DNA of 64,000 nt from Patescibacteria group bacterium (GCA_016784145.1 JADHVF010000001.1:26367-90366); one strand, 5' to 3'. Shown: positions 5,139-64,000, numbered from the stretch's first letter. Notes: a model not told the origin generated them from the sequence alone. Made by a program: numbers and translations.

Positions 5139-5321
5139 ATGGTAAAAAAATTCACAGATTATATTAAAAATTCAATTATAGAATTAAGAAAAGTTGAGTG
5201 GCCAAGCAGAGAACAAGCAATAAAACATACTATACTTGTTGTTGGGGTGAGTCTTGTAGTAGCTGCTTTTTTAGGAGTAATTGATTTTATATTAACTAAT
5301 GTTTTGCAACTAGTAATTTAA
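5139..5321 (+). CDS. secE: Preprotein translocase subunit SecE
   Basis: A 60-aa protein with a single C-terminal TM helix (ILVVGVSLVVAAFLGVIDFIL) sits immediately upstream of nusG, the conserved secE-nusG arrangement. Confidence 0.7.
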   Translation: MVKKFTDYIKNSIIELRKVEWPSREQAIKHTILVVGVSLVVAAFLGVIDFILTNVLQLVI

Positions 5322-5341
5322 TTTTTATTTTTTAAAAAAAT

Positions 5342-5887
5342 ATGCCAAAGCAAATACAAAAAGAAGGCCGTCAATGGTATGCAATTCATGTTTATTCGGG
5401 CTATGAAGAAAATGTTTCAGAAACATTAAAAAAAAGAATTAAATCAATGAACATGTCTGATAAGATTTTTGAAGTATTGGTTCCAACAGAAAAGAAAATC
5501 AAAGTTAAAAATGGTAGGCGTAGGACTATTGTTGAAAAAATTTTTCCTGGATATGTTTTAGTTAGAATGGTTGTTGATGATGATTCTTGGTATGCTGTTA
5601 GAAATACACCAAGTGTGACAGGTTTTATTGGGTCGGGAGTGACGCCAACGCCTTTGTCTGATCAAGAAATAAAGTCAATAAAAAAGAGAATGAAAATAGA
5701 GGAGCCAAAGTACAAGATAGATATTGCTATTAATTCGCCAGTTAAAATAATAGATGGCCCGTTTAAGGGATTTGAAGGAAGAGTTTCAGAGGTGGATGAA
5801 GCTAGAGGGAGAATAAAGGTATTAATTTCAGTTTTTGGTAGAGAAACTCCAGCTGAATTAGATTTTTTGCAAATTAAAAAAATATAG
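5342..5887 (+). CDS. nusG: Transcription termination/antitermination factor NusG
   Basis: N-terminal [12 protein letters not shown] and a C-terminal KOW motif ([19 protein letters not shown]). Conserved position before rplK. Confidence 0.85.
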
Positions 5888-5907
5888 GATTAAGATTTAT
5901 ATTCTTT

Positions 5908-6330
5908 ATGAAAAAAATAAAAAGCACAATTAAATTACAAATTATGGCAGGGCAAGCAACTCCTGCTCCTCCTATTGGTCCAATTCTTGGACAGCACGGG
6001 CTTAATATAGCTGAATTTTGTAAGCAATTTAATGATAGAAGCAAGGATATGTCGGGCGACATTATTCCTGTTAGGATAACTGTTTTTCAGGACAATACAT
6101 ATTCTTTTGTTTTAAAAACGCCCTTAGCGTCTTCATTGATTAAAAAAGCTGTTAATGTTAAAAAAGGATCAAGTAGCCCTCTTCAAGAAAAAGTGGGCAA
6201 AATATCTAAATCCAAGATTGAAGAAATAGCTAAAATTAAAATGCCTGACCTAAATACTAATAATCTTGAGCAGGCTTGCAAAATTATACAAGGAACAGCC
6301 AGACAGATGGGAATAGAGACAGAAGAATAA
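5908..6330 (+). CDS. rplK: 50S ribosomal protein L11
   Basis: [30 protein letters not shown] is the characteristic L11 N-terminal domain. Confidence 0.9.
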
Positions 6331-6349
6331 ATAATTATATAAGTATTTT

Positions 6350-7027
6350 ATGAAAAGCAAGAAACATCAAAACATATCCTCAAAAATAGATAAATCTAAA
6401 TTATATAGTTTAGATGAAGCAATTGATTTTATTAAGAAAAATCCAGTTGTGAAATTTGAAGAATCAATTGAAGCACATATTCATTTAGGGATAAATCCAA
6501 TTAAGACAGAGCAAAAGGTTAGGGGGTCTATTTTATTACCAAATCCAATGCCAAAGAAAATCAAAATAGTTGCTTTTGTGTCTGACAAGCAGAAGAAATC
6601 AGCCAAAGAAGCAGGGGCTGACTTAGTTGGAGGAGAAGATTTGATTGATCAGATTAGTAAAGAAAAAAAATGTAATTTTGATATAGCTGTAGCAGAGCCA
6701 GCCATGATGCAAATATTGTCTAAAATAGCAAAAGTTTTAGGACCAAAAGGGTTAATGCCAAGTGAAAAAGCAGAAACGCTTGGCAATGATGTTTCTAGTA
6801 TAATTAAGCAAATCAAGGCAGGTAAAATTTTCTTTAGAAATGATGCAGGAGCAAATATTCATTGTGCTATTGGTAAGTCTTCATGGGAAGCAGGCAAAAT
6901 AAAGGAAAACCTTGATGCTCTTTTAACTTTATTAAAAAAAATAAAACCCTCTGGAACAAAGGGTGAATTTATTAGAAAAATTTTTATTTGTTCAACAATG
7001 GGGCCTGCAATAGAAATTAGTTTATAG
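6350..7027 (+). CDS. rplA: 50S ribosomal protein L1
   Basis: GADLVGGEDLIDQI and LGPKGLMP motifs. Conserved position after rplK. Confidence 0.9.
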   Translation: MKSKKHQNISSKIDKSKLYSLDEAIDFIKKNPVVKFEESIEAHIHLGINPIKTEQKVRGSILLPNPMPKKIKIVAFVSDKQKKSAKEAGADLVGGEDLIDQISKEKKCNFDIAVAEPAMMQILSKIAKVLGPKGLMPSEKAETLGNDVSSIIKQIKAGKIFFRNDAGANIHCAIGKSSWEAGKIKENLDALLTLLKKIKPSGTKGEFIRKIFICSTMGPAIEISL

Positions 7028-8414
7028 TTCTTTTTTTGATACTTGGCCCATTCGGCTTATCTTCTATATCAAATCCTAATTTATTAATTTGTTTTCTTAG
7101 TTTATCAGATTCTTCCCATTCTTGATTGTCTCTCATTACTTGGCGTTGAATAGCCATTTTTTTTATTTTAGCAGGAATTTTTGCCTGTTTTTTAATTTTA
7201 TCAAGCCCAAGACAGAGAACTTTATCAAAATCTAATATAGTGGCCAGTTTGTCTGCTTGTTTGTGATTACTTTTTATAATATCCCACATAATAGCAATTG
7301 CTGCTGGCGTATCTAAATCATTATTAATGGCTGTTTGAAATTTTTTCTGGTATAATTTTATTATTTTGCTTGGACGATTATATGATGATATTGTGTTATA
7401 TAGATTATTTAATGCATTTTGGCTTGATTTTAAGTTTTGCCAGGAAAAGGAAAGAGGAGACCTATATTTAGCGCTTAAACAGAGATATCTGTATGCAATT
7501 GGATTAAAATTTTTGGCAATTAGGGTTGATAGAGTTATAAATGTTTCTTTGCTTTTTGACATTTTGGCTTTATCAAGAATAAGAAATTCATTGTGTACCC
7601 AATAATTTGCTAGTGGTTTGTGGTTAATTGCTTGTGCTTGTGCAATTTCGTTTGTGTGATGAACAGGGATATGGTCAATTCCTCCAGTATGAATGTCAAA
7701 CGGTTGTTTTAAGTATTTAACTGACATGGTTGAACATTCAATGTGCCAGCCAGGCCATCCTTTTCCCCAAGGAGAATCCCATTGCATGATATGATTTTTA
7801 TTTTTAGGGGTTGATTTAAGCCAAAGAGCAAAATCGGTTGGAGTTTTTTTAGTAGGGTTTACACAAACTCTGGCTCCGTGTAAAAGATTTTCAATGTCTA
7901 TTTTAGCAATTTTTCCATAATTTTTAAGCTTGGCAGTATCAAAATAAATTCCATCAGCTGTTTCGTAGCAATAGCCATTTTTTTCAATTTTTTTAATATC
8001 TGATATCATGTCTTCAACATGTTCAGTTGCTTTTGCCCATTTACTAGGATGAGAAATATTTAATTTTGTAATATCAGATTTAAATGCATTAGTATAAAAA
8101 TTAGATATTTGTTTCATTGAATTAATATCTAGTTTTTTACCCTCCCTTTTAATGGCTGTTATTATCTTGTCTTCGCCTTCATCTTGGTCAGAAGTTAGAT
8201 GTCCAACATCAGTAATATTTATTACATGTTTTATTTTATAATCATTATATTCCAATGTTTTTTTTAGTATATCAGCAAAAATATATGCCCTTAAGTTTCC
8301 AATATGGGCATAATTATAAACAGTTGGACCACAACTATATAACCCAACCTGTTTTAGTTTAATTGGTCTAAATATTTCTTTTTTTCTTGTTAGAGTATTA
8401 TATAATTTTATCAT
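7017..8414 (-). CDS. cysS: Cysteinyl-tRNA synthetase
   Basis: Class I HIGH motif (YNYAHIGNLRAY), KMSKS motif (AKMSKSKETF), CGPTVY N-terminus and the WPGWHIECS zinc-site motif. Confidence 0.9.
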   Translation of the reverse strand: MIKLYNTLTRKKEIFRPIKLKQVGLYSCGPTVYNYAHIGNLRAYIFADILKKTLEYNDYKIKHVINITDVGHLTSDQDEGEDKIITAIKREGKKLDINSMKQISNFYTNAFKSDITKLNISHPSKWAKATEHVEDMISDIKKIEKNGYCYETADGIYFDTAKLKNYGKIAKIDIENLLHGARVCVNPTKKTPTDFALWLKSTPKNKNHIMQWDSPWGKGWPGWHIECSTMSVKYLKQPFDIHTGGIDHIPVHHTNEIAQAQAINHKPLANYWVHNEFLILDKAKMSKSKETFITLSTLIAKNFNPIAYRYLCLSAKYRSPLSFSWQNLKSSQNALNNLYNTISSYNRPSKIIKLYQKKFQTAINNDLDTPAAIAIMWDIIKSNHKQADKLATILDFDKVLCLGLDKIKKQAKIPAKIKKMAIQRQVMRDNQEWEESDKLRKQINKLGFDIEDKPNGPSIKKRTIN

Positions 8415-38596: not shown

Positions 38597-38910
38597 CTTG
38601 AGCACGAATCTTCCTAAGAATCACTTAGAGGCCTTGCCCCTAAGTAGAATAGAAATTAATAATCAGTAATCAATAATCAATAATCAACAATCTCAATTAG
38701 AATCACTTAGGGGCCTTGCCCCTAAGTAGAATAGAAATTAATAATCAGTAATCAATAATCAGTAATCAATAATCAATAATCAATAATCTCAATTAGAATC
38801 ACTTAGGGGCCTTGCCCCTAAGTAAATATTGAGCACGAATCTTCCTAAGAATCACTTAGGGGCCTTGCCCCTAAGTAGAATAAGCAGAGTAAGTAGAGTA
38901 AGTAGATTGT
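38597..38910. repeat. Composite repeat region built from a GC-rich hairpin unit, an AT-rich spacer family and a short tandem repeat
   Basis: Four copies of gaatcacttag[ag]ggccttgcccctaagtagaat (a 9-bp stem cttaggggc/gcccctaag with loop ctt). They alternate with AATAATCAGTAATCAATAATCA-type spacers. A 54-bp terminal direct repeat (ttgagcacgaatcttcctaagaatcacttagNggccttgcccctaagtagaata) sits at 38597-38650 and 38829-38882. An (agtaagtag)x3 tandem repeat follows at 38883-38909. Confidence 0.85.
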
Positions 38911-43714: not shown

Positions 43715-44338
43715 ATGCCAGAATCTTTTATCATAGCCCCTCTTTTATTAGGTCTTTCAACTGGAATATATTGTTTTGTTTATTGTATTCCTTTTATTGC
43801 TCCAGTAATGATTTCTGAGAAAAGAGGCAAACAACAAGACATTAAGACACTTACTCATTTTATTCTAGGTAGATTAATTGGCTATATTTTATTTGGGGCT
43901 GTGTTTGGTTATTTAGGGGAAAGTATTAATAATGATAATTTAAATATTATCTTGAATATTGCTCTTGTTTTAATGTCTTTGATTTTAATCTTACATGCTT
44001 TTGGTTTGTTAAGGTCAACTAAATCTTCGTTTTGTGCTAATATTAAAAAACATAATAAAAAATTCCCACTATTAATGGGTTTTTTTATGGGGATAAATGT
44101 TTGCCCGCCATTTTTAATGTCATTGGCTTACATTTTCACTCTTAATAGTGCTTTAAAAGGTATTATTTATTTTTTAATGTTTTTTGTTGGCACCACTCTT
44201 TATTTTATTCCTTTAGTGCTTTTAGGGTTGTTAAATAAAATGAAAGAGTTCCAACTTGTCGGCAAAATTTCAGGGCTAATAGTTGGTTGCTTGTTTTTGT
44301 TTTATGGAATATATAATATCATTTTACTAATAAATTAA
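43715..44338 (+). CDS. CcdA/DsbD-like membrane protein (putative transmembrane thiol-disulfide electron conduit)
   Basis: Six predicted TM segments. A Cys-Pro pair lies in TM1 (YCFVYCIPF) and another in TM4 (GINVCPPF), the pattern seen in CcdA/DsbD-family proteins. Family assignment is by motif only. Confidence 0.4.
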   Translation: MPESFIIAPLLLGLSTGIYCFVYCIPFIAPVMISEKRGKQQDIKTLTHFILGRLIGYILFGAVFGYLGESINNDNLNIILNIALVLMSLILILHAFGLLRSTKSSFCANIKKHNKKFPLLMGFFMGINVCPPFLMSLAYIFTLNSALKGIIYFLMFFVGTTLYFIPLVLLGLLNKMKEFQLVGKISGLIVGCLFLFYGIYNIILLIN

Positions 44339-44347
44339 TAAAAAAAT

Positions 44348-44662
44348 ATGGATAGAAACAAAATTAATAGAATTTTATTTAAAATATCAAATTATGCAGG
44401 ACCTTTGTTGGGAATTATTATGTTGATATATATTATATCGGGCTATGGCATAACCAAAGGGATTATGTCTCCCTTGTTAGCCAAATCCTTGCATAGCAGA
44501 TTGTTGCCAATTCCTTTATTCATGGTAATTGGTTTGCATGCTTTTATTAAAATGAATTTTAATTTAAGAAAAAGAGTTAGTAAAGATATAATTGCAGATA
44601 TTTGGACAATTATTTTATTTGGTCTATTTATGTTGGCTGGTCTTTATTTATACTTTTTATGA
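44348..44662 (+). CDS. Small hypothetical membrane protein (3 TM), translationally coupled to the downstream radical SAM gene
   Basis: Its stop TGA overlaps the ATG of the next gene (ATGA at 44659-44662). Confidence 0.35.
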   Translation: MDRNKINRILFKISNYAGPLLGIIMLIYIISGYGITKGIMSPLLAKSLHSRLLPIPLFMVIGLHAFIKMNFNLRKRVSKDIIADIWTIILFGLFMLAGLYLYFL

Positions 44663-45765
44663 TTAGGAAAATAGGAGCAATTTTATTTTTAATAATAATT
44701 ATCTTTTTAGTTGGATTTTTGATTTATGGTTCTGAAAAAAATAAAGACCAAATTGATTTTTATCCAGCCAAATATTATCAAACATTAGGGAATAAAATTG
44801 TTCAATGTAATTTATGTCCTAGAAAATGTATTTTATCGCCAGGAGAAATAGGGGTTTGTAAGGCCCGAAAAAATGTTGATGGAGAATTAAAAACAATGGT
44901 TTATAACAAGGTGGCAGCAGCCCATGTTGATCCCATAGAGAAAAAACCACTTTATCATTTTTTGCCAGGCACAACAGCTTATTCTATTTCAACAGCTGGT
45001 TGTAATTTACAATGCAAGTTTTGTCAGAATTGGCAAATTGCTCAAGTTTTTCCATGGGAAGCAACCTCAATGGAGATGTCTCCGCAAGAGGTTGTTGATA
45101 ATGCCTTGGCTAGTAATGCTAAGGCAATTGCTTATACTTATGGAGAGCCAACTATTTTTTATGAATACATGTATGATATTGCTAAATTGGCTCATAAAAA
45201 TGGGCTTAAAAATGTGGTGATTAGTGCTGGATATATAAATCCAGAGCCATTGCAAGACCTTTTGGAATATATTGATGCTTACAAAATTGATTTTAAGGGA
45301 TTTTCTCCTGATTTTTACAAAGAAATGACTTTAGGAGAATTAGAGCCAGTGTTAGAAACAATGAAAATTATAAAGCAATCAGGCACTTGGTTGGAAATTG
45401 TCAATTTAGTTATTCCAGGAGAAAACGATAATGATGAAAATTTGAAAAATTTAGCTTTATGGATAAAAGATAACTTAGGAGAAGATGTTCCGTTACATTT
45501 TCTTAGGTTCCATCCAGACTATAAATTGTTAAATGTTCCTCCAACTCCAATTAATACTCTAAAAAAAGCTAGACAAATAGCTTTAAACGCAGGACTAAAT
45601 TATGTTTATACGGGCAATATTTATGACCCGGATGGCAGTATTACGTATTGTCCTGACTCAGGGGATGTAGCCATTAAAAGGCAAGGTTTTTTTCTTTTAG
45701 ATAATAATTTAGATAAAAATGGCTATTGTTCGCCTGACTCGCAAGTGCCAGGAATTTGGCAATGA
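44659..45765 (+). CDS. AmmeMemoRadiSam-system radical SAM enzyme (PFL-activase-like) with an apparent N-terminal TM helix
   Basis: The N-terminal Cys cluster CNLCPRKCILSPGEIGVC precedes the canonical radical SAM motif GCNLQCKFCQN (CX3CX2C). The overall length fits the family. The predicted start MIRKIGAILFLIIIIFLVGFLIYG is a hydrophobic helix. The ORF-track start at 44602 lies inside the upstream gene. Confidence 0.75.
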   Translation: MIRKIGAILFLIIIIFLVGFLIYGSEKNKDQIDFYPAKYYQTLGNKIVQCNLCPRKCILSPGEIGVCKARKNVDGELKTMVYNKVAAAHVDPIEKKPLYHFLPGTTAYSISTAGCNLQCKFCQNWQIAQVFPWEATSMEMSPQEVVDNALASNAKAIAYTYGEPTIFYEYMYDIAKLAHKNGLKNVVISAGYINPEPLQDLLEYIDAYKIDFKGFSPDFYKEMTLGELEPVLETMKIIKQSGTWLEIVNLVIPGENDNDENLKNLALWIKDNLGEDVPLHFLRFHPDYKLLNVPPTPINTLKKARQIALNAGLNYVYTGNIYDPDGSITYCPDSGDVAIKRQGFFLLDNNLDKNGYCSPDSQVPGIWQ

Positions 45766-45774
45766 TTTTATTAT

Positions 45775-47304
45775 ATGAAAAAGAAATATTTAAAAATTAG
45801 TTTTTGGTTTTTGTTAATAATAGTAATTTGTTTGCTTTGGTTATCTTGGCAGGTCAAAAAAAATCAACAATTATATTCATTACTCCCTATTGAACAAGCA
45901 CAAGTAAAAATTATTAGAAGCCCGGCAGTGGCTGGAACTTTTTATCCTTCATCTCCATCTGTTTTGAAAAACACTATCAATCAATTTTTAGACAAAGTGC
46001 AAATAATAGAAACAGATAATCAAATAATGGGGTTAATATTGCCTCATGCGGGCTATCAATATTCGGGCCAGGTAGCTAGTTATGGAATTAAGCAATTAGC
46101 AGGGCAATCAATAGACACAATTATTTTAATTGGCAATAGTCATTATGATAGGTTTGACGGAATCTCTGTTTATGAACAAGGATATTATAAAACACCCTTG
46201 GGGGAAGTCAAGATAGATTCTGTTTTAGCGAGCAAGATTATCAATGCTAATAAGCGAATTTTTTTTAGAACTAAAGCGCATGAGCAAGAACATGGTTTGG
46301 AGGTTGAGTTACCTTTATTACAACAAGTATTAGATAATTTTAAGATTGTGCCGATTATGTTTGGAAATGGTAGCGATGATGATTATAAAATTTTAGCTGA
46401 AGCAATTGTTAAACACACGGCTAATAAAAATGTTTTATTAATTGCTAGTTCTGACTTATCTCATTATCCGTCCAGAAATCATGCGAGAATTGCTGACTTA
46501 AAAACAATTGATTCAATTTTAACTGGAGAGGTTGATCAATTTAAAAATACTATACTTAAATTAAAGCAAGAGGGGATTCCAAATGCCTCAACCTTTGCTT
46601 GTGGACAGGATGCTATAAAAACAGTGATGCAGGCATTGAAACAAATGAATGCAAATGAAATTAAATTATTTAATTATGCTAATTCAGGCGATGTTATAGA
46701 GACAGAGCAAAAAGTGGTTGGATATACTAGTATTGGTTTTTTTGGAGCCAGAAGAGGGGATTTATTGAATAAATTAGAAAAAGAAAAACTTTTACAGATT
46801 GCTAAACAAACAATAACATCGCATGTTTTAAATAAAAAAATTCCTGAATTCGAAATTAATTCAGGCAAATTAAAAGAAAATTTAGGAGCCTTTGTCACCA
46901 TAAGAAAACAGGGGAGACTAAGAGGTTGTATTGGTAGGTTTTCTCCAACAACAGTTCCATTACATCAAGTTGTATCTGAAATGGCTATATCTGCCTCTTC
47001 AAATGATAGTAGATTTCCGCCAGTTCAACCAAATGAGTTAGCAGAGCTTGATTACGAGGTTTCTGTTTTAAGTAATTTGATAAAAATTGATGATTGGCAA
47101 GAAATTGAATTAGGTAAGCATGGTGTGCAAATCAGGCAGGGCATGAGAAGTGGCGTGTTTTTGCCACAAGTTGCTACTGATAACAATTGGGACATAAATA
47201 GGTTTATGGGTGAGTTATGTTCTCAAAAAGCAGGGCTGGCATATGATTGCTGGAAAAATAATAATGTTGAAATTTATGTTTTTACGGCCCAGGTTTTCGA
47301 ATAG
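45775..47304 (+). CDS. Fused Memo-like (AmmeMemoRadiSam protein B) and AMMECR1 (protein A) protein with an N-terminal signal anchor
   Basis: The Memo/MEMO1 motifs are AGTFYPSSP, LPHAGYQYSG and IGNSHY. The AMMECR1 motifs are GAFVTIRKQGRLRGCIGRF and GVFLPQVA. The N-terminus MKKKYLKISFWFLLIIVICLLWL is a hydrophobic segment. 509 aa. Confidence 0.8.
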   Translation: MKKKYLKISFWFLLIIVICLLWLSWQVKKNQQLYSLLPIEQAQVKIIRSPAVAGTFYPSSPSVLKNTINQFLDKVQIIETDNQIMGLILPHAGYQYSGQVASYGIKQLAGQSIDTIILIGNSHYDRFDGISVYEQGYYKTPLGEVKIDSVLASKIINANKRIFFRTKAHEQEHGLEVELPLLQQVLDNFKIVPIMFGNGSDDDYKILAEAIVKHTANKNVLLIASSDLSHYPSRNHARIADLKTIDSILTGEVDQFKNTILKLKQEGIPNASTFACGQDAIKTVMQALKQMNANEIKLFNYANSGDVIETEQKVVGYTSIGFFGARRGDLLNKLEKEKLLQIAKQTITSHVLNKKIPEFEINSGKLKENLGAFVTIRKQGRLRGCIGRFSPTTVPLHQVVSEMAISASSNDSRFPPVQPNELAELDYEVSVLSNLIKIDDWQEIELGKHGVQIRQGMRSGVFLPQVATDNNWDINRFMGELCSQKAGLAYDCWKNNNVEIYVFTAQVFE

Positions 47305-58200: not shown

Positions 58201-58230
58201 AAAAGCCCTGTTTTTTAACAGGGCTTTTTG
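58201..58230. terminator. Bidirectional Rho-independent terminator hairpin (copy 1 of an identical 30-nt element)
   Basis: A 12-bp stem (aaaagccctgtt / aacagggctttt) with loop tttt, flanked by an A-run and a T-run. Confidence 0.8.
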
Positions 58231-58242
58231 ATGAGAGATTTA

Positions 58243-58623
58243 TTAGCAAAGAATCACCTTATCAATCCTTTTAATATCTTGATCAGGAATTTTGTGTAGG
58301 TTTTTTATTTCCTTCCAAATACAGACCTGGACATGCTTGTTAGTGGTAATATTATAGTGGTTATCTTTCATTGCTAGAACTTTTTCTGGTACATTTTTAA
58401 GTGCTTCAGAAATTAATAATAGTTCTTTCTTATTCAGGTCTTCAAAGATACCATCTTCTGTTATTAAAAGGATGCACTTTAGGGCTAGATTATTATCTGG
58501 GTGTCTTGAAAAATAAGTGATTATTTTTTTCATAAATCTCTTTTTTTCATTGATTAACTCTATTAGCCCTTTAATTTTTAGGGCCATTTCTAGAGAGTGA
58601 ATCCCTGGAGTTTCCATAATCAT
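58243..58623 (-). CDS. Hypothetical protein (cassette gene 1)
   Basis: 126 aa with no recognisable motifs. It runs divergently from the next gene. Confidence 0.4.
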   Translation of the reverse strand: MIMETPGIHSLEMALKIKGLIELINEKKRFMKKIITYFSRHPDNNLALKCILLITEDGIFEDLNKKELLLISEALKNVPEKVLAMKDNHYNITTNKHVQVCIWKEIKNLHKIPDQDIKRIDKVILC

Positions 58624-58726
58624 CTCCTTTTTTATTTTGATGTACTATGCATTAAGATATCATTTTTTAGTGTTTTTGTCAAGATATTACAAAGTCCTTG
58701 CTTTTTTTAGTATTTTTGCTATTATT

Positions 58727-58996
58727 ATGAATATGAAGAAAATATTTGAAAATTTTGACAGAGAAAGTATTCCTGAAAAATTAACAGACAAAGAGGCAAT
58801 GGAGATTGTTAATAATATTCATGACAATAGATTGACTCTAGACAAAAATCATTCAGAATATTTTAATATTTTAATTAATGACAAGACAAATAGAAGCGCA
58901 AAAATTCTCAAAAGAAAATTTGTTTTACTAGAAAATAAAGATATAGTAAAAATAGAGGACTATTTAAGACAAGTATTAAGTGAAATTGATAAATAA
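58727..58996 (+). CDS. Hypothetical protein (cassette gene 2; start moved to internal ATG MNMKK)
   Basis: 89 aa and Lys/Asp-rich. The upstream part of the ORF-track ORF (58637) would leave a 13-bp divergent gap and is hydrophobic nonsense-like. Confidence 0.35.
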   Translation: MNMKKIFENFDRESIPEKLTDKEAMEIVNNIHDNRLTLDKNHSEYFNILINDKTNRSAKILKRKFVLLENKDIVKIEDYLRQVLSEIDK

Positions 58997-59066
58997 TTCT
59001 TTGTGAAAGAGAGGCCATGACAATCAATTTATTGAGACAAGGCCTATTAGCAAGATGATTAAAGAA

Positions 59067-59096
59067 AAAAGCCCTGTTTTTTAACAGGGCTTTTTG
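59067..59096. terminator. Bidirectional terminator hairpin, identical copy 2 (aaaagccctgttttttaacagggctttttg)
   Basis: 30/30 identity with 58201-58230 on direct reading. Confidence 0.8.
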
Positions 59097-59214: not shown

Positions 59215-61425
59215 TTATTTAATTAATGGTTTATATCTTTTCATTAGCAAGGCGTTAGAAATAACGCTAACAGAAGAAAAAGCCATGGCTCCAGCTGCAA
59301 TACTAGGGGATAGCAGTGATTGAGTCATAGAGTAAAAAGCTCCAGCAGCAACTGGAATACTAATTGTATTATAAAAAAATGCCCAAAAAAGATTTTGTTT
59401 TATTTTTTTAAGGGTATATTTACTTAAATCAATGGCTGTTACAACATCTCGCAAATCGTCTTTAATTAATACTATTTCTCCTGTTTCCACGGCAATGTCA
59501 CTGCCAGATCCAAGTGCAATACCAATGTCAGCCTGGGCTAAAGCAGGAGCATCATTAATACCATCCCCGACCATGCACACCTTGTATCCTTGTTTTTGTA
59601 GTTTGGCTATTTCAGCTGCTTTATCTGAAGGCAGGACATCTGCTAAAACTTTATCCATGCCAAGCTGTTTAGCAATTGCTTGCCCAACCATAATATTATC
59701 TCCTGTAATAATGCCTGTTTTTTTGTTTAATTTATGAAGTTTAGCAATTGCTAATTGAGAATATTCTTTTAATGTATCGGCAATAGCGATAATTCCATGG
59801 ATTTTTTTATCAACACTTAATATTACACAGGTTTTTCCGCTTGCTTCTAAGTTTTGTAGTTTTTTTTCAATCAAATCAATATTAATTTGATTTTCTTTTA
59901 TTAGAGCTGGTTTACCCAATAATATTGTTTGATTATTTATATCTGCCTTTATTCCTTTTCCTAAAATTGCTTGAAAGTTTTTAGCTTCAAGTAAATTTAT
60001 TTGCTTCTCTTTAGCTTTGTTAATGATTGCTTGTGCTAAAGGATGTTCTGAATACTTTTCAATTGAAGCTGCTAATTGTAGTATGGTTTGTTCATTTGTG
60101 TTTTGGGTTATTTTAATTATATCAGTGACAGTTGGTTCTCCTTTTGTTAATGTGCCTGTTTTGTCAAAAATTATAAAATCAACATTTTTGGCTTTTTCTA
60201 GTGCCTGACTGCTTTTAATTAAAATGCCATATTTGGCTGCTAATCCAGTTCCAACCATTATGGCGGTTGGAGTGGCTAACCCTAAAGCGCAGGGGCAGGC
60301 AATGATAAGAACAGCCACAAAAGCTGTTAAGGCAAAAGCAAATGATTTACCTAATAATAACCAGGTTGTTAACGCTATGATGGCTATAAAAATAACAGCT
60401 GGCACAAAATAAAGAGCAGTTTTATCAGCCAAAAGTTGAATTGGCGGTTTAGACCCCATGGCTTTCTCTACGGTTTCAATAATTTGAGATAACATAGTAT
60501 CTTTTCCAATTTTAGTTGCTTTAAATTTTAAAAAACCTGTTTTGTTGATGGTTCCTCCAATAACTTGCTCATTAATATTTTTTTCAACTGGAATACTTTC
60601 TCCGGTAATCATTTTTTCATCAACGCTTGAATAGCCATCAATAATAATTCCATCAACTGGAATTTTTGCTCCTGGCTTAATTAAAATAATATCATTTACT
60701 TTTACTTCTGATACGTCTATTTTTACTTCTTGATTGTCTTTTAAAATTATTGCCTGCTTTGGCTGAAGCCCAATTAATTTTTTAATTGCTTGGCTAGTTT
60801 TTCCCTTTGTAATGGCTTCAAGATATTTTCCTAAATTAATAAAAATTAAAATAAAGACAGCGCTTTCATAATATAAATCTTGTATGATGGTTTTATAGCC
60901 AAATATCAATGATAAAGAAATTGCTAAACTATAAACATAAGCAGATAGGGTTCCAATAAAAACCAATGAATCCATATTTGGTTTGAGTTGTAATAAATTT
61001 TTAATTCCATTTGTCCATATTTTAATAGAAAATCCAATAACAACAGAGGCAAAAATAAATTCGATTATATGAGTATTTGTTTCTATAAAATAGGGGATTG
61101 GCAGACCAATCATTTTCCCCATAGACATATAAACAACAGGTAGCCCAAATATAAAGCTAAAAATAAGGCGTTTTTTTAGAGAGGAGGAATAATCATTGGT
61201 GTTTACTTCCTCTTTTGACTGAATTTTATATCCTAGGTTATTAATAATTTTAGTTATTTGTTTGAGGTTGATTTTATTGATATCAAAATCTAAATAAGCC
61301 TTTTCATTGGCAAAATTTACATTAATTGAATTTACTCCCTCTGTTTTTTTTAGTTTATTTTCAATAATTGTTGAACAAGAAGCGCAATGCATGCCTTTTA
61401 TTTTTAATATTTCTTTTTTTTCCAT
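59215..61425 (-). CDS. copA: Copper-translocating P1B-type ATPase
   Basis: The N-terminal HMA domain carries GMHCASC. The TM segments carry CPC (ACPCALGLATP) and MxxSS (MAFSSVSV). The phosphorylation site is DKTGTLT, with GDGINDAPAL downstream. 736 aa. Confidence 0.85.
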   Translation of the reverse strand: MEKKEILKIKGMHCASCSTIIENKLKKTEGVNSINVNFANEKAYLDFDINKINLKQITKIINNLGYKIQSKEEVNTNDYSSSLKKRLIFSFIFGLPVVYMSMGKMIGLPIPYFIETNTHIIEFIFASVVIGFSIKIWTNGIKNLLQLKPNMDSLVFIGTLSAYVYSLAISLSLIFGYKTIIQDLYYESAVFILIFINLGKYLEAITKGKTSQAIKKLIGLQPKQAIILKDNQEVKIDVSEVKVNDIILIKPGAKIPVDGIIIDGYSSVDEKMITGESIPVEKNINEQVIGGTINKTGFLKFKATKIGKDTMLSQIIETVEKAMGSKPPIQLLADKTALYFVPAVIFIAIIALTTWLLLGKSFAFALTAFVAVLIIACPCALGLATPTAIMVGTGLAAKYGILIKSSQALEKAKNVDFIIFDKTGTLTKGEPTVTDIIKITQNTNEQTILQLAASIEKYSEHPLAQAIINKAKEKQINLLEAKNFQAILGKGIKADINNQTILLGKPALIKENQINIDLIEKKLQNLEASGKTCVILSVDKKIHGIIAIADTLKEYSQLAIAKLHKLNKKTGIITGDNIMVGQAIAKQLGMDKVLADVLPSDKAAEIAKLQKQGYKVCMVGDGINDAPALAQADIGIALGSGSDIAVETGEIVLIKDDLRDVVTAIDLSKYTLKKIKQNLFWAFFYNTISIPVAAGAFYSMTQSLLSPSIAAGAMAFSSVSVISNALLMKRYKPLIK

Positions 61426-61442
61426 AATTTTATTTTTTTTAA

Positions 61443-62939
61443 TTAATATGCCCTAATTATAGAACCACAACCACAACTTGGGATGCCACAATCTCCGCCA
61501 CATGAGCCACTGCTTCCAGTAGTGCCTCCACAACTTCCTTCAGGTAAATTAAGTGATTCTTTGTAGATAGTTTCTCTTGACGGTTGTTTGTTTTCATCAG
61601 TGACAATAAATTTGCCCCAAACCATTTGCATCCAGCAAGAAAACTTAATTTCACCAACTTTGGTTGGTGTAAATTCAATAATATTTTTACCTTGTTTTAA
61701 TTTTTTTCTTATATTATATCCATCATGCAGAATGATTTCATCAGTGCATCTGGTCATTTCTTTTGCAGTAATAATCCATCTAACAGGAACGCCTTTTTTA
61801 ATATATATAACATTTGGATCATATCCTCTGTATTTAATTGCCATATTAACTGTTTGATATTCCTTAACATCGCCAGTTACTATAAACTCTGTTTGGGCAC
61901 TTGATTCTCGTGGCACAAATTCCCTAAAGCCATATCCAAAATTAGTCAAACCTCTGTTAATCATAAATAATCCAAGTATTATCACTACAATTCCTGATAT
62001 TTTCATTACTTGTTTAATTTTATCTTTACTAATTAAAGAAATAAAATTACCAAAACCAAACATTAATGGCACTGTTCCTAATGCATATATTCCCATTGAA
62101 AGAGCTCCTCTGACAATGCTCCCAGATGCTAGGGCATATATTTGCATTGCTTGCAATGGTCCACAAGGCATAAGGCCATTAAGTAAACCAATGATAAAAG
62201 GTCCCTTTGGTTTTCTAGTATGTCTTTGTGAGTAAAGAAATTTTCCCATAAAAGATGGCATTTTAAGTTTGATTTTTTCAAACCAGGACATACTGGTAAT
62301 AAAAGATAATCCCATTAAAATCATAAAAATACCAGCTATTAAGATAACACTGCCTGTAAAAGTAGGGTTGATGGCAAAAAATGATCCCAATCCACCTAAA
62401 ATTCCGCCAACCATTGTATAAGATATTGTTCTTCCAAGATTGTATTGAATATGGGGCCAAGAAGCTTTTGTTTGTTTATCTCCCTTGGCATGATGTCTGG
62501 CCGTATAAGCAACTACTAATCCTCCACACATACCAACACAATGAAAGCTAACCAAGATGCCAATTAAAAAAATAAGCCAATAACTTATTTTGGCTTCATT
62601 TAATTTAGCTAGTAATTCAAGTGCACCAGAATTTTTAATTAAAACATAAACAATGATTAGTAAAATAAATAATCCAGAAGCAATTAACATCTTCTTCTTT
62701 TTATTTACTTGTGCTTTTGTTTTTTTAATCTTTTCAACCTTATATTTTAATTTTTCAATTTTAGCAAAAATTTTTCGTTGAGATATTTGGTTGTCATCAA
62801 ATTCTATTTCAGTTTTTCCAGTAACATGGTCAACTGTAATATCTTTAACTCCTTTTAAAATATCAACTTCTGTTTCAATCAATGTCTTGCAACTTTGACA
62901 ATGAGTTCCTTTGATTTTGATTTTGATTTTTTTAAGCAT
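61443..62939 (-). CDS. HMA-domain membrane protein with DsbD/CcdA-like Cys-Pro TM motifs and a C-terminal cupredoxin-like/Cys-rich domain
   Basis: N-terminal HMA (GTHCQSCKT). The TM region carries HCVGMCGG and GLMPCGPL. The C-terminal soluble domain has H...FSCWMQM, a candidate Cu-ligand set, and ends in a cysteine-rich tail CGGTTGSSGSCGGDCGIPSCGCGS. Confidence 0.45.
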   Translation of the reverse strand: MLKKIKIKIKGTHCQSCKTLIETEVDILKGVKDITVDHVTGKTEIEFDDNQISQRKIFAKIEKLKYKVEKIKKTKAQVNKKKKMLIASGLFILLIIVYVLIKNSGALELLAKLNEAKISYWLIFLIGILVSFHCVGMCGGLVVAYTARHHAKGDKQTKASWPHIQYNLGRTISYTMVGGILGGLGSFFAINPTFTGSVILIAGIFMILMGLSFITSMSWFEKIKLKMPSFMGKFLYSQRHTRKPKGPFIIGLLNGLMPCGPLQAMQIYALASGSIVRGALSMGIYALGTVPLMFGFGNFISLISKDKIKQVMKISGIVVIILGLFMINRGLTNFGYGFREFVPRESSAQTEFIVTGDVKEYQTVNMAIKYRGYDPNVIYIKKGVPVRWIITAKEMTRCTDEIILHDGYNIRKKLKQGKNIIEFTPTKVGEIKFSCWMQMVWGKFIVTDENKQPSRETIYKESLNLPEGSCGGTTGSSGSCGGDCGIPSCGCGSIIRAY

Positions 62940-63011
62940 GTTTTTTTTATTATTTTATTATTTATTATTTTATTTTTGAGAGGCTCAGCCTCTGAGGAGT
63001 TTCAAGCAAAA

Positions 63012-63281
63012 CTATTTGCAAGTGTTGTTTTTATTATTACAAGTTTTTGTTTGTTTAAATTTAATATATGAATAAATTGCCAATATCAAAAAAATTATTG
63101 ATATGATTATAAGTAATTTATTATAAGATACTAACCAGGCACTAAAAGAAGCAATTCCAAGAAAAGATAAAATAGCTGCTCCTGTTAAGGTACAACACCA
63201 CCCCAGTAGGCCGATGATGCCTAATCCGCCTGTAAGAAAAGAGATTATAGATAAAAAAATTGTTTTTAATTTATTGTTCAT
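63012..63281 (-). CDS. Small membrane protein with a vicinal Cys pair in TM1 (MerT-like feature)
   Basis: 89 aa with GLLGWCCTLTGAAIL in TM1 and a C-terminal C-x8-C (KTCNNKNNTCK). Confidence 0.35.
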   Translation of the reverse strand: MNNKLKTIFLSIISFLTGGLGIIGLLGWCCTLTGAAILSFLGIASFSAWLVSYNKLLIIISIIFLILAIYSYIKFKQTKTCNNKNNTCK

Positions 63282-63286
63282 TTTAA

Positions 63287-63412
63287 TTATTGATTTATTA
63301 AATCACACTCTCCTTTAATAATTTGACAAGATGAATTAGTATTATTAATTAAAGTTTTTCTAATAAAAATACTAGTTAAAACTATTAAAAAAACTATAAT
63401 AAATTTTTTCAT
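63287..63412 (-). CDS. Possible 41-aa exported peptide with a C-x5-C motif (not in the ORF track)
   Basis: Manual translation gives MKKFIIVFLIVLTSIFIRKTLINNTNSSCQIIKGECDLINQ. It begins with a signal-peptide-like segment and lies between two metal-related genes. No other support. Confidence 0.2.
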   Translation of the reverse strand: MKKFIIVFLIVLTSIFIRKTLINNTNSSCQIIKGECDLINQ

Positions 63413-63420
63413 ATATTTAT

Positions 63421-64000
63421 TTAAAAAAGGTTAGCAATTTTTTCGAGCTCTGATAGAGTAATTTTTATTTTTCCATTCTCGTTTTTTAAGTTTGGATTGA
63501 TTGGCGCTGGATTACAACCACCCTTTTCAGTTGCAATTTTAGCTAAAGGATATTTATTTCCACAAGCATCACAAGTCATAAAATCACCCTCTTTTTTAAA
63601 TCCTAATCTAGCATCAAAACAAACTTGGCAGGCATTGGCAGCTGCCCTATAAACACCATTTTTGTCTTTAACAACAAAATAATAAACGACTTTTCCATTA
63701 GGAAGTTCTGTATTGTAATAATGAAATCCATCAACATCAATATCACTTGCATTTAAGATTACTTTATTGCTTAATAACGAAAGATTTTGTCCATTTTCTC
63801 CATTAAACTTAATATTAGGCAATTTCATAGATGCTTTAAAAGGGATTGTGTTTTGTGAAAAAGTTGGTTGATTTGTTGAACATTTTAATAATTCTTTTAA
63901 TTCAGGTAGTTTTTTGTATCCACTATATAGTTTTTCATTTATTACAAAAGTCGGAACTGTCCTGAATTGATGTCGAACTTGTCCAGTATTAGCATTGATT
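63421..64000 (-). CDS. Thioredoxin-fold domain fused in frame to a CxxC...CxxC (DUF2318-like) Cys-rich domain; N-terminus beyond window end
   Basis: The - strand frame stays open from 63828 to the window end. It encodes ...GQVRHQFRTVPTFVINEKLYSGYKKLPELKELL, a glutaredoxin/thioredoxin cis-Pro region. Downstream are ACQVCFDARLG and MTCDACGNKYP. Confidence 0.5.
   Translation of the reverse strand, partial: INANTGQVRHQFRTVPTFVINEKLYSGYKKLPELKELLKCSTNQPTFSQNTIPFKASMKLPNIKFNGENGQNLSLLSNKVILNASDIDVDGFHYYNTELPNGKVVYYFVVKDKNGVYRAAANACQVCFDARLGFKKEGDFMTCDACGNKYPLAKIATEKGGCNPAPINPNLKNENGKIKITLSELEKIANLF

Follow-up and report, generated by a model that had tools for sequence, protein, structure and literature searches.

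The present analysis concerns a stretch of 64,000 nucleotides from a Patescibacteria group bacterium (GCA_016784145.1, JADHVF010000001.1:26367-90366), referred to here as the window. Near its end, from 59215 to about 64000, five open reading frames (ORFs) follow one another on the minus strand, and the operon to which they belong very probably serves copper detoxification under the control of CsoR. As a kind of system, the CsoR/CopA operon is known. Its main accessory protein represents a widespread and misnamed family with a distinctive architecture; it is a membrane protein of 498 amino acids that joins an HMA domain, a DsbD_2 domain and a cupredoxin, and which is termed HDC in this report.

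The five genes lie where the initial annotation had placed them, as was confirmed by the ORF listing of the window. The last one was also correctly located, from 63421, but it is not complete in the window: its frame is open through base 63999. A public contig (L001), identical to the window over 63000-64000, was used to extend the locus past the window end. On this contig, the full protein has 272 amino acids and consists of a thioredoxin (Trx)-like domain fused to a DUF2318 domain; 5 nucleotides upstream of its gene lies csoR, which encodes a CsoR-family protein of 90 amino acids. The gene order is csoR, trx-DUF2318, p41, p89, HDC and copA, and then comes a terminator. The intergenic gaps throughout are 5-72 nucleotides long, and because of these tight gaps and the terminator after copA, the six genes from csoR to copA are considered as one unit. 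The terminator is an intrinsic-terminator-like, bidirectional hairpin with a 13-bp stem and T runs (59066-59095, assigned to neither strand). It is found about 120 nucleotides past the copA stop codon and is likely to mark the end of the operon.

The copper context proposed for these genes is strongly supported by three of the products, namely a CopA of the expected subfamily, a CsoR of the Cu(I) type and a cupredoxin of the CupA type. The CsoR homologue, whose gene lies outside the window on L001, matches PF02583 (Trns_repr_metal) with 58 bits against a cutoff of 22.8. Its best alignment is with M. tuberculosis CsoR (2hh7), and the Cu(I) ligands Cys36, His61 and Cys65 (the C-H-C triad) are kept. 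About 50 nucleotides upstream of csoR, there is an inverted repeat, ATACCTATACC-N3-GGTATAGGTAT, with ATG as its spacer. The same repeat is seen at the same distance in most csoR-bearing related loci, with scores of 16-22 of 22; the background scores 11.5 on average, with 13 at the 95th percentile and no value above 17. The search for CsoR or CopY operators that had been suggested for this locus has, in this way, led to a Cu(I)-type CsoR encoded directly upstream and to a conserved repeat, which is a candidate for the operator itself.

At the other end of the unit, copA (59215-61425, minus strand) encodes a Cu(I)-exporting P1B-1-type ATPase of 736 amino acids with a single N-terminal HMA domain (GMHCASC) and with matches to the E1-E2_ATPase, Hydrolase and HMA families. 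The protein had initially been called a Cu(I) P-type ATPase, and the subfamily models agree with this: TIGR01511, the Cu-ATPase subfamily, is matched with 601 bits (cutoff 397) and TIGR01525 with 647 bits (cutoff 346). The CPC, YN, MxxSS and DKTGT motifs, together with the CxxC of the HMA domain, are the established signatures of Cu(I) P1B-1 ATPases. All of them are present in the translation (IIACPCALG, FFYNTISIP, AMAFSSVSV, FDKTGTLT and the GMHCASC mentioned above).

Architecture, conservation and distribution of HDC

The HDC gene (61443-62939, minus strand, as are all the domains that follow) encodes a membrane protein with Pfam matches to HMA, DsbD_2 and Cupredoxin_1. Profile searches had been recommended for this protein, and they assign it to these families and not to a non-metal one. 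Residues 1-75 (62715-62939) form an HMA domain with the motif GTHCQSC, which is predicted from the loop charge to be cytoplasmic. Its Pfam match covers residues 7-67 (E 2.9e-11), and it shares 41% identity with CopA's own HMA domain. A linker rich in Lys and Arg separates it from the first transmembrane (TM) helix. Residues 84-324 (61968-62690) comprise an extra TM helix (84-104) and a six-helix DsbD_2 core, delimited by the DsbD_2 match, the invariant columns and the positive-inside rule. The match itself spans residues 123-324 (172 bits, E 1.5e-50), and HDC also matches DsbD_TM (34.7 bits, above the cutoff, E 1.5e-8) and PRK00293 (E 1.5e-10). The core is followed by a CupA-type cupredoxin at residues 358-446 (61602-61868), with C398 and C435-W-M437-Q-M439, which the Cupredoxin_1 match and the alignment with CupA define and which is predicted to be extracytoplasmic. 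The protein ends in a Gly/Cys-rich tail at residues 465-492 (61464-61547; SCGG...SCGGDCG..SCGCG). This tail is lineage-specific, with three or more Cys in 16 of 79 homologues, and Firmicute relatives carry GGCCG or CC tails instead. The predicted topology has the HMA domain inside, seven TM helices, and the cupredoxin and the Cys-rich tail outside; the loops predicted to be inside carry on average 5.8, 4.3, 8.4 and 2.3 Lys and Arg residues, and those predicted to be outside 1.3, 0, 0.7 and 1.5.

An alignment of 32 homologues with 54-69% identity was used to assess conservation. In TM1, residues F132, H133, C134, G136, C138, G139 and G140 (FHCxGMCGG) are invariant and M137 is conserved in at least 90% of the sequences. 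H163 is invariant as well, and so are M257, P258, C259, G260 and P261 of TM4 (MPCGP) and C398 of the cupredoxin; C435, W436, M437 and M439 are again conserved in at least 90%. The initial annotation had described the HMA domain, the HCVGMC and MPCGP motifs of the TM region, the C-W-M-Q-M motif and the Cys-rich tail, and all of these stand. The His ligand that it had added to the C-terminal domain does not: H405 is not conserved among the homologues, and the conserved partner is C398. Unconserved ligands in homologues had been named as what would speak against a copper role. In the wider set of 79 homologues (33-66% identity), the Cys/Met ligands, as CxMxM, are kept in 78 and the CxxC of the HMA domain in 77, and neither motif was used as a pattern in the genome scan.

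The window holds a second DsbD_2 protein, which is a useful comparison. It is a stand-alone protein of 207 amino acids (43715-44338, plus strand; 86.9 bits) with the motifs YCFVYC and VCPP at the equivalent places, and it has neither the His nor the Met. CxxxC and CP, which both proteins have, are therefore regarded as traits of the family, and the His and Met as specific to the HDC subfamily. Their pattern would fit a soft-metal site.

The C-terminal domain of HDC is related to CupA of S. pneumoniae (PDB 2mry/4f2e) with an E value of 2.5e-12 for the single sequence and 7e-18 for the family profile; the cupredoxin-type metal-binding domain on the CopA of that species is a further match. In the alignment, C398 falls on the first Cys of CupA and C435-W-M437-Q-M439 on its C-G-M-N-M. 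HDC therefore has all of the residues, two Cys and two Met, that make up the binuclear Cu(I) sites (S1 and S2) of CupA in the pneumococcal CupA/CopA pair (PDB 4F2E, 2MRY, 4F2F), and in both cases the gene lies next to copA in a copper-regulated operon. The two systems differ in several ways, however. CupA is small, is anchored by a single N-terminal TM helix and faces the cytoplasm, whereas the domain in HDC comes after seven TM helices and is predicted to be outside. CupA feeds a cupredoxin-type domain on the pneumococcal CopA, whereas the CopA of this operon has an N-terminal domain of the HMA type, and the regulator is CopY in the pneumococcus and CsoR here. They also differ in range. A review from 2020 describes CupA as restricted to a few streptococci (PMC7558416), whereas the CupA-type domain in its fused HDC form is found in at least 589 species genomes.

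This last number comes from a scan with one genome per species. At the level of sequences, the HDC family comprises at least 7,210 database clusters at E < 1e-5, most of which are named 'sulfite exporter TauE/SafE family protein'. The hosts include Patescibacteria, DPANN archaea, Clostridia, Treponema, Chloroflexota and methanotrophs, and the majority are anaerobes. Patescibacteria, Clostridia and DPANN archaea are mostly single-membrane organisms. A search of plasmids gave only partial, distant matches with the generic TauE/SafE name. For a survey of the neighbourhood, ORFs were called in 80 loci and compared with iterated profiles of the window proteins, and 78 species loci were counted. On the same strand and within 3 kb of HDC, a P-type ATPase was found in 56 of the 78 loci (72%), a DUF2318 protein in 26 (33%) and a CsoR in 17. 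The neighbourhood of HDC with the ATPase, and in part with DUF2318, is conserved across phyla. Firmicute forms of HDC often have two cupredoxin domains, and vicinal-Cys motifs (GGCCG, CC, SCCGG) in their Gly-rich linkers or tails. Among Firmicute and other HDC proteins from loci L024-L080 (e.g. L032, L040, L043 and L044), the second cupredoxin is sometimes without the Cys/Met ligands.

A link of this family with CsoR has been proposed before. In 2016, a regulon study of gut Firmicutes predicted that CsoR controls COG2836 proteins (HMA, DsbD_2 and DUF2318) and DUF2318 proteins (PMC4938975). These belong to the same HMA and DsbD_2 family, with DUF2318 fused or adjacent, and were predicted to be copper-related. 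That work is a regulon inference only, and the relationship to cupredoxins and CupA, the topology and the mechanism were not part of it; the operon described here adds the Trx fusion and p89.

The Trx-DUF2318 protein and the small genes

The 272-amino-acid protein encoded after csoR begins with a membrane anchor, followed by a Trx/Grx-like domain with the motif CGWC and a DUF2318/FtrD-like domain. The anchor, the CGWC site and csoR lie outside the window (L001 8423-8940), and the window itself holds the C-terminal half of the Trx/Grx-like domain with its VPTFVIN cis-Pro region (63865-63999, minus strand) and the whole DUF2318/FtrD-like domain (residues 171-272; 63424-63729, minus strand). The latter is predicted to be extracytoplasmic and matches PF10080 with 81.8 bits (cutoff 26.3, E 4e-23). 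The initial annotation had read the motifs CQVC...CDAC as those of a thioredoxin fold. They belong to the DUF2318 domain instead; a real Trx-like domain is nevertheless present, fused upstream of it. In that domain, C56-x-W-C59 and the cis-Pro P96 are invariant, and C43 and C120 nearly so. The Cys set of the DUF2318 domain is C204xxC207...C223xxC226 with C242 (GGCNP), of which C204, C207 and C223 are invariant and C226 and C242 are conserved in at least 90%. Fusions of this type are common in Patescibacteria, with 346 matches.

In the AlphaFold2 model of this protein, both domains are mostly above a pLDDT of 90. A Foldseek search with the first domain returned thioredoxins, in keeping with a profile search in which it was aligned to glutaredoxin with the CxxC and the cis-Pro in register. 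With the second domain, Rieske-type structures were returned at E values of 6e-3 to 1e-2 and a probability of about 0.99; searches of the PDB by sequence and profile gave no solved relative of DUF2318. C204 and C223 are 19 residues apart, as are the corresponding Cys of the Rieske motif CxH...CxxH. The DUF2318 domain can tentatively be described as having a Rieske-like fold on the basis of this model. The label given to DUF2318 proteins by NCBI is 'Fe-S-containing protein'. An N-terminal signal, lipobox or anchor is present in all 28 DUF2318 neighbours of HDC that were inspected, and a recognisable twin-arginine (Tat) motif is missing from most of them, so the domain appears to be extracytoplasmic and is probably exported by the Sec route. 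Probable Sec export, in turn, favours a metal-thiolate or redox-Cys role over a pre-assembled iron-sulfur cluster.

C. jejuni FetA, which is accompanied by the thioredoxins FetE and FetF, has a DUF2318 domain too, of unknown function (PMC10783030). FetA, encoded in fetMP-fetABCDEF, resembles the present protein in its PF10080 match, its two CxxC motifs and fifth Cys, its predicted extracytoplasmic location and its association with thioredoxins. It differs in being an eight-TM protein from a cluster for iron uptake that also encodes an FTR1-type permease and P19, whereas the protein described here has a single anchor and a Trx fusion and is encoded in a copper operon.

The gene p89 (63012-63281, minus strand) encodes a membrane protein of 89 amino acids in which C29-C30 sit within a TM helix and C81 belongs to the basic C-terminal tail, a layout remotely similar to that of MerT and MerF. 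The vicinal CC pair pointed out in the initial annotation is a real feature: C29, C30 and C81 are invariant in the four close relatives of p89, and C88 is not conserved. The family is small. The four close relatives were found among 5.8 billion clusters, and 19 profile matches among 1.84 billion representatives. In the loci examined, p89 genes are always found within copper/thiol clusters. They lie directly upstream of the HDC gene in L087 and L088 and directly after a DsbA-like gene in L047 and L089-L091. In L089 (3979-6246) and also in L090, the cluster reads csoR, DUF411, a gene of unknown type, DsbA-like and p89, and in L091 its downstream part is present. Because of these clusters, p89 is said to track DsbA-like genes as well as HDC. 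In L089, the cluster is followed by genes for hemerythrin, flavodoxin-like, rubrerythrin and desulfoferrodoxin proteins.

In MerT and MerF, a vicinal Cys pair lies in the first TM helix and a second Cys site on the cytoplasmic side. With these proteins, p89 appears to share the vicinal CC within a TM helix, a Cys in the basic tail that comes after its last helix, and the presence of HMA-fold partners. A further likeness lies in the Mer relay, in which metal is transferred between Cys pairs across the membrane. MerT imports Hg(II) for cytoplasmic reduction, however, and no such logic is evident for copper here. By itself, p89 has no Pfam MerT match, and it scores 21.4 bits against MerTP_fusion (cutoff 180, E 1.5e-4); models of MerT, MerTP and MerE are matched by several of its distant relatives, at E values down to 2.8e-9. 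No MerR, MerP or MerA was found in the window, L001, L047 or L087-L091. A bona fide MerT is ruled out by score and gene context, and p89 is seen as a remote MerT-like protein that is not a demonstrable MerT.

Between p89 and trx-DUF2318 lies p41 (63287-63412, minus strand), an ORF of 41 amino acids for which a gene call exists on most public contigs. Initially described as possibly exported, it has a signal-like N-terminus; its Cys motif is C-x6-C rather than C-x5-C. Its alignment covers the first 28 and the last 13 residues of a longer exported Cys-rich protein of 126 amino acids in L047, a relative at 66% identity. As it matches the two ends of a longer protein, the idea of a dedicated Cys peptide was downgraded, and p41 is probably the remnant of an internal deletion in such a protein. 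The longer protein has the motifs CCINPPCTMC...CAC...PCPQC and no Pfam match. In L047, the region from trx-DUF2318 to p89 (5279-6753) encodes this protein together with a His/Met-rich SHOCT protein and a DsbA-like protein with a CPYC motif. The same locus has an ORF of 362 amino acids between HDC and copA, which we take by eye, without a profile check, to resemble the tRNA thiouridylase MnmA.

A proposed copper relay and competing explanations

In the mechanism that we favour, a rise in cytoplasmic Cu(I) would cause CsoR to leave the operator, and CopA would export Cu(I). HDC, beside CopA, would act as a transmembrane hand-off. Its CopZ-like HMA domain would take Cu(I) in the cytoplasm, and the DsbD-like core (H133, C134, M137, C138, M257 and C259) would move it outward via ligand exchange. 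The external CupA-type binuclear site (C398, C435, M437 and M439) and the Cys-rich tail would then capture it at the outer face and so prevent its re-entry or its attack on surface thiols. The anchored Trx-DUF2318 protein would keep the external cysteines reduced and/or accept Cu(I) on its five-Cys domain, and the MerT-like p89 would be an auxiliary, Cys-lined membrane component. Going by sequence and predicted topology, three copper-type ligand sets stand in series along HDC, in the cytoplasm, in the membrane and outside. The relay of copper is preferred because it leaves no conserved part without a function, the near-universal HMA domain and the subfamily-specific His and Met among them. As the favoured sub-mechanism for the TM chain of HDC, it is judged to have slightly less than an even chance of being right, and the statement as a whole, that is, the operon together with this mechanism, is evenly balanced. 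It is possible, if doubtful, that HDC is an ATP-independent Cu(I) conduit whose DsbD-fold core passes copper over His, Cys and Met from the HMA domain to an extracellular CupA-type site, with a Rieske-like, all-Cys DUF2318 domain and its fused thioredoxin processing the copper. The initial suggestion of a route that is 'not just efflux' and works by thiol-based transfer would be a sensible way to read the conserved Cys chain.

Several points weigh against a copper relay. To our knowledge, the characterised members of the DsbD family move electrons and not metals, and a second path for copper beside an ATP-driven pump needs a rationale. Many Firmicute HDC loci also encode a separate CopZ, and the HMA domain of HDC is, for this reason, not simply a substitute for CopZ. 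The combination of trx-DUF2318, p41 and p89 is limited to this contig and to L047. The TM motifs HCxxMC and MPCGPLQA, found in 79 and 69 of 79 homologues, served as patterns in the genome scan, so these counts are not independent evidence. The topology is derived from the positive-inside rule alone. The AlphaFold2 model of HDC, built on the 32-sequence alignment, has a mean pLDDT of 62.8 and a pTM of 0.46; the HMA domain is confident and the cupredoxin parts are moderate (pLDDT about 54-81), while the TM core is poor (about 45-65), and with such a core, the model was discarded for fold searches and metal-site geometry. PDB searches by sequence and profile found no solved relative of the DsbD_2 core, and no CcdA or DsbD at E <= 1. 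Finally, beyond the regulon prediction of 2016, no experimental characterisation of HDC or its DUF2318 partner was found in the open-access literature.

The foremost competing explanation is an electron relay like that of Scs or DsbD, in which the core of HDC moves reducing equivalents, and not copper, outward. The CupA-like Cys pair, the Cys tail and Trx-DUF2318 would be kept reduced, and the HMA domain would only sense or gate; the reduced outer thiols would repair copper-oxidised surface thiols and bind the Cu(I) released by CopA. The homology of HDC to the TM domains of DsbD and CcdA, as in the DsbD_TM and PRK00293 matches, is real. With these proteins HDC shares the six-helix core, the conserved Cys in TM1 and TM4 and, in the MPCGP of TM4, the Pro next to the Cys. 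DsbD and CcdA, however, have one redox Cys each in TM1 and TM4, both flanked by Pro, whereas TM1 of HDC (FHCxGMCGG) has two Cys in an HCxxMC arrangement and no Pro. HDC also has an extra N-terminal TM helix and a fused cytoplasmic metal-binding domain, and it is without the fused Trx-like gamma domain. An anchored extracytoplasmic Trx-like CxxC domain, such as that of this operon, needs an electron donor in the membrane. DsbD and CcdA pass electrons from cytoplasmic thioredoxin to a Trx-fold partner on the outer side, and Trx-DUF2318 is a candidate for such an extracytoplasmic partner of HDC. Outside Patescibacteria, however, the DUF2318 partner is without a Trx domain, and the separate DsbD_2 protein in the window could serve general needs. 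The copper-induced Scs system (ScsABCD) of Salmonella, Proteus and Caulobacter has a DsbD-family membrane protein, an anchored Trx-fold protein, a DsbA-like protein (present here in the relative L047) and a small membrane protein with intramembrane Cys. Since L047 also encodes the DsbA-like protein, its cluster has a counterpart for each of ScsA/B/C/D. Cu(I) is bound by ScsB and ScsC, which pass it on to CueP (PMC10907172). This resemblance is an analogy of parts rather than a homology of systems. The alpha and gamma domains of ScsB are absent from HDC, in which the domain scan shows HMA, DsbD_2 and Cupredoxin_1 only, so that an HMA and a CupA-like domain stand in their place; Scs is, furthermore, under CpxRA, whereas here a cytoplasmic CsoR and linkage to copA are found, in hosts that are mostly single-membrane organisms. 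In favour of electrons, the S1 cysteines of CupA can reduce Cu(II) in vitro (PMC7558416). On the other side, an electron relay leaves the near-universal cytoplasmic HMA domain without an obvious role, and His and Met at these places are peculiar to the subfamily. Taking both sides together, we consider an electron relay in place of copper transfer to be rather unlikely. The two are not mutually exclusive: what travels along this Cys chain could be reducing equivalents in place of copper, or both together, as in Scs.

The remaining explanations are all improbable, in descending order. Copper acquisition, in which HDC and p89 would import or chaperone Cu(I) for the assembly of cuproenzymes, draws on the fact that MerT-like proteins are importers, on the HDC homologues in methanotrophs with their high demand for copper and on an archaeal DsbD-family gene that is induced by copper limitation (PMC7785015). 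Yet the operon begins with a CsoR that is derepressed by Cu(I) and ends with an exporting CopA, and import under excess would be self-defeating; the hosts, moreover, are mostly anaerobes. The import route considered in the initial annotation is hence not upheld, as derepression by cytoplasmic Cu(I) excess argues for detoxification. Still less probable is another thiophilic metal, i.e. Ag(I), Hg(II), Cd(II) or Au(I). The HMA domains also match models of the MerP and MerTP types, p89 is MerT-like and Cys-rich sites bind all soft metals, but the locus has no MerR, MerA or MerB, the C-H-C triad of CsoR and the signatures of CopA are those of Cu(I), and the external domain agrees with CupA ligand for ligand. 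Very remote is an accessory role in Ftr/Fet-like iron redox uptake, with a cupredoxin and DUF2318 as in FtrB/FtrD or FetA. The Cupredoxin_1 family also covers domains of the EfeO/FtrB type, and the DUF2318 of C. jejuni FetA keeps company with thioredoxins, as described above. Against this, no FTR1 permease, P19 or ABC genes were found at the locus and no Fur-type context was seen in L001, the regulator is CsoR and the cupredoxin is of the CupA type. An exporter of sulfite or organosulfonates of the TauE/SafE type can practically be dismissed, since it has only the name in the NCBI records in its favour; HDC has no match to TauE (PF01925) at E < 0.1, its core is DsbD_2, and the fused domains and neighbours are all copper-related.

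Setting of the locus and implications

The cluster had initially been described as an island. Its GC content of 0.29-0.31 does not, however, depart from that of the window in general, and it is flanked by the housekeeping genes metK, glyA and folD. The flat base composition and these flanks rule out a genomic island, and the locus is an ordinary chromosomal operon and not a compositional island. Between metK and the copA terminator, at 58243-58996, there are two small divergent ORFs of 126 amino acids (minus strand) and 119 amino acids (plus strand). On the other side, upstream of csoR, an ORF of 112 amino acids on L001 (7853-8191) has several Cys (CKIRGQCIDC ... CINC), its own terminator and no family match; it is a transcription unit separate from the csoR operon. 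The stand-alone DsbD_2 gene is followed, at 44348-47304, by genes for a membrane protein of 104 amino acids and for ORFs of 387 and 509 amino acids. Judging by eye and without a profile check, the former ORF is presumably akin to a radical SAM enzyme of the AmmeMemoRadiSam type and the latter to a Memo/AMMECR1 fusion.

Several hairpins were noted in the sequence. The core of the copA terminator, GCCCTG-TTTTTTAA-CAGGGC with A/T runs on both sides, is found at 58205-58224, at 59071-59090 and on L001 at about 8215-8245. Being present at several gene ends, it looks like a bidirectional terminator sequence that is reused in the genome. A 6-bp GC-rich hairpin, AGAGGC-TCA-GCCTCT (62979-62993, minus strand), lies within the 72-nucleotide spacer between p89 and HDC and agrees with the perfect hairpin reported earlier between these genes. 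Perfect GC-rich hairpins of 6 bp occur at about 9 sites in the window against about 1.3 in shuffled sequences, and the fold of 86 nucleotides around this one has a z score of -2.25. It is ruled out as a terminator by the absence of a U tract after the stem, and it is missing in L047, where the p89 and HDC genes abut without a spacer. The hairpin may be a minor element of RNA stability or processing. Elsewhere, at 38690-38880, there are direct repeats of about 96 nucleotides, each with a hairpin TAGGGG-CCTTG-CCCCTA (38708, 38804 and 38857) together with AATCA/ATAATCA runs; a search of these repeats gave no tRNA.

Copper efflux by CsoR or CopY, CopZ and CopA is textbook knowledge, and the fate of Cu(I) at the outer face, in anaerobes and in cells with no outer membrane, is poorly understood. 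The locus described here gives an abundant and mislabelled family a clear copper context and would also put right a systematic annotation error. The CupA-type Cu(I) site is seen to be widespread, and it is probably extracellular. The proposed mechanism is a testable model that would link the folds used in copper chaperoning, in thiol relays of the DsbD type and in metal transfer of the MerT type. Genetics is feasible, as homologues are present in the cultured Clostridium hominis, Lacrimispora, Acetobacterium malicum, Treponema primitia and Methylobacter marinus. If the mechanism is true, CupA-type domains would be the outer end of a membrane-spanning copper route that is common in anaerobic bacteria and DPANN archaea.

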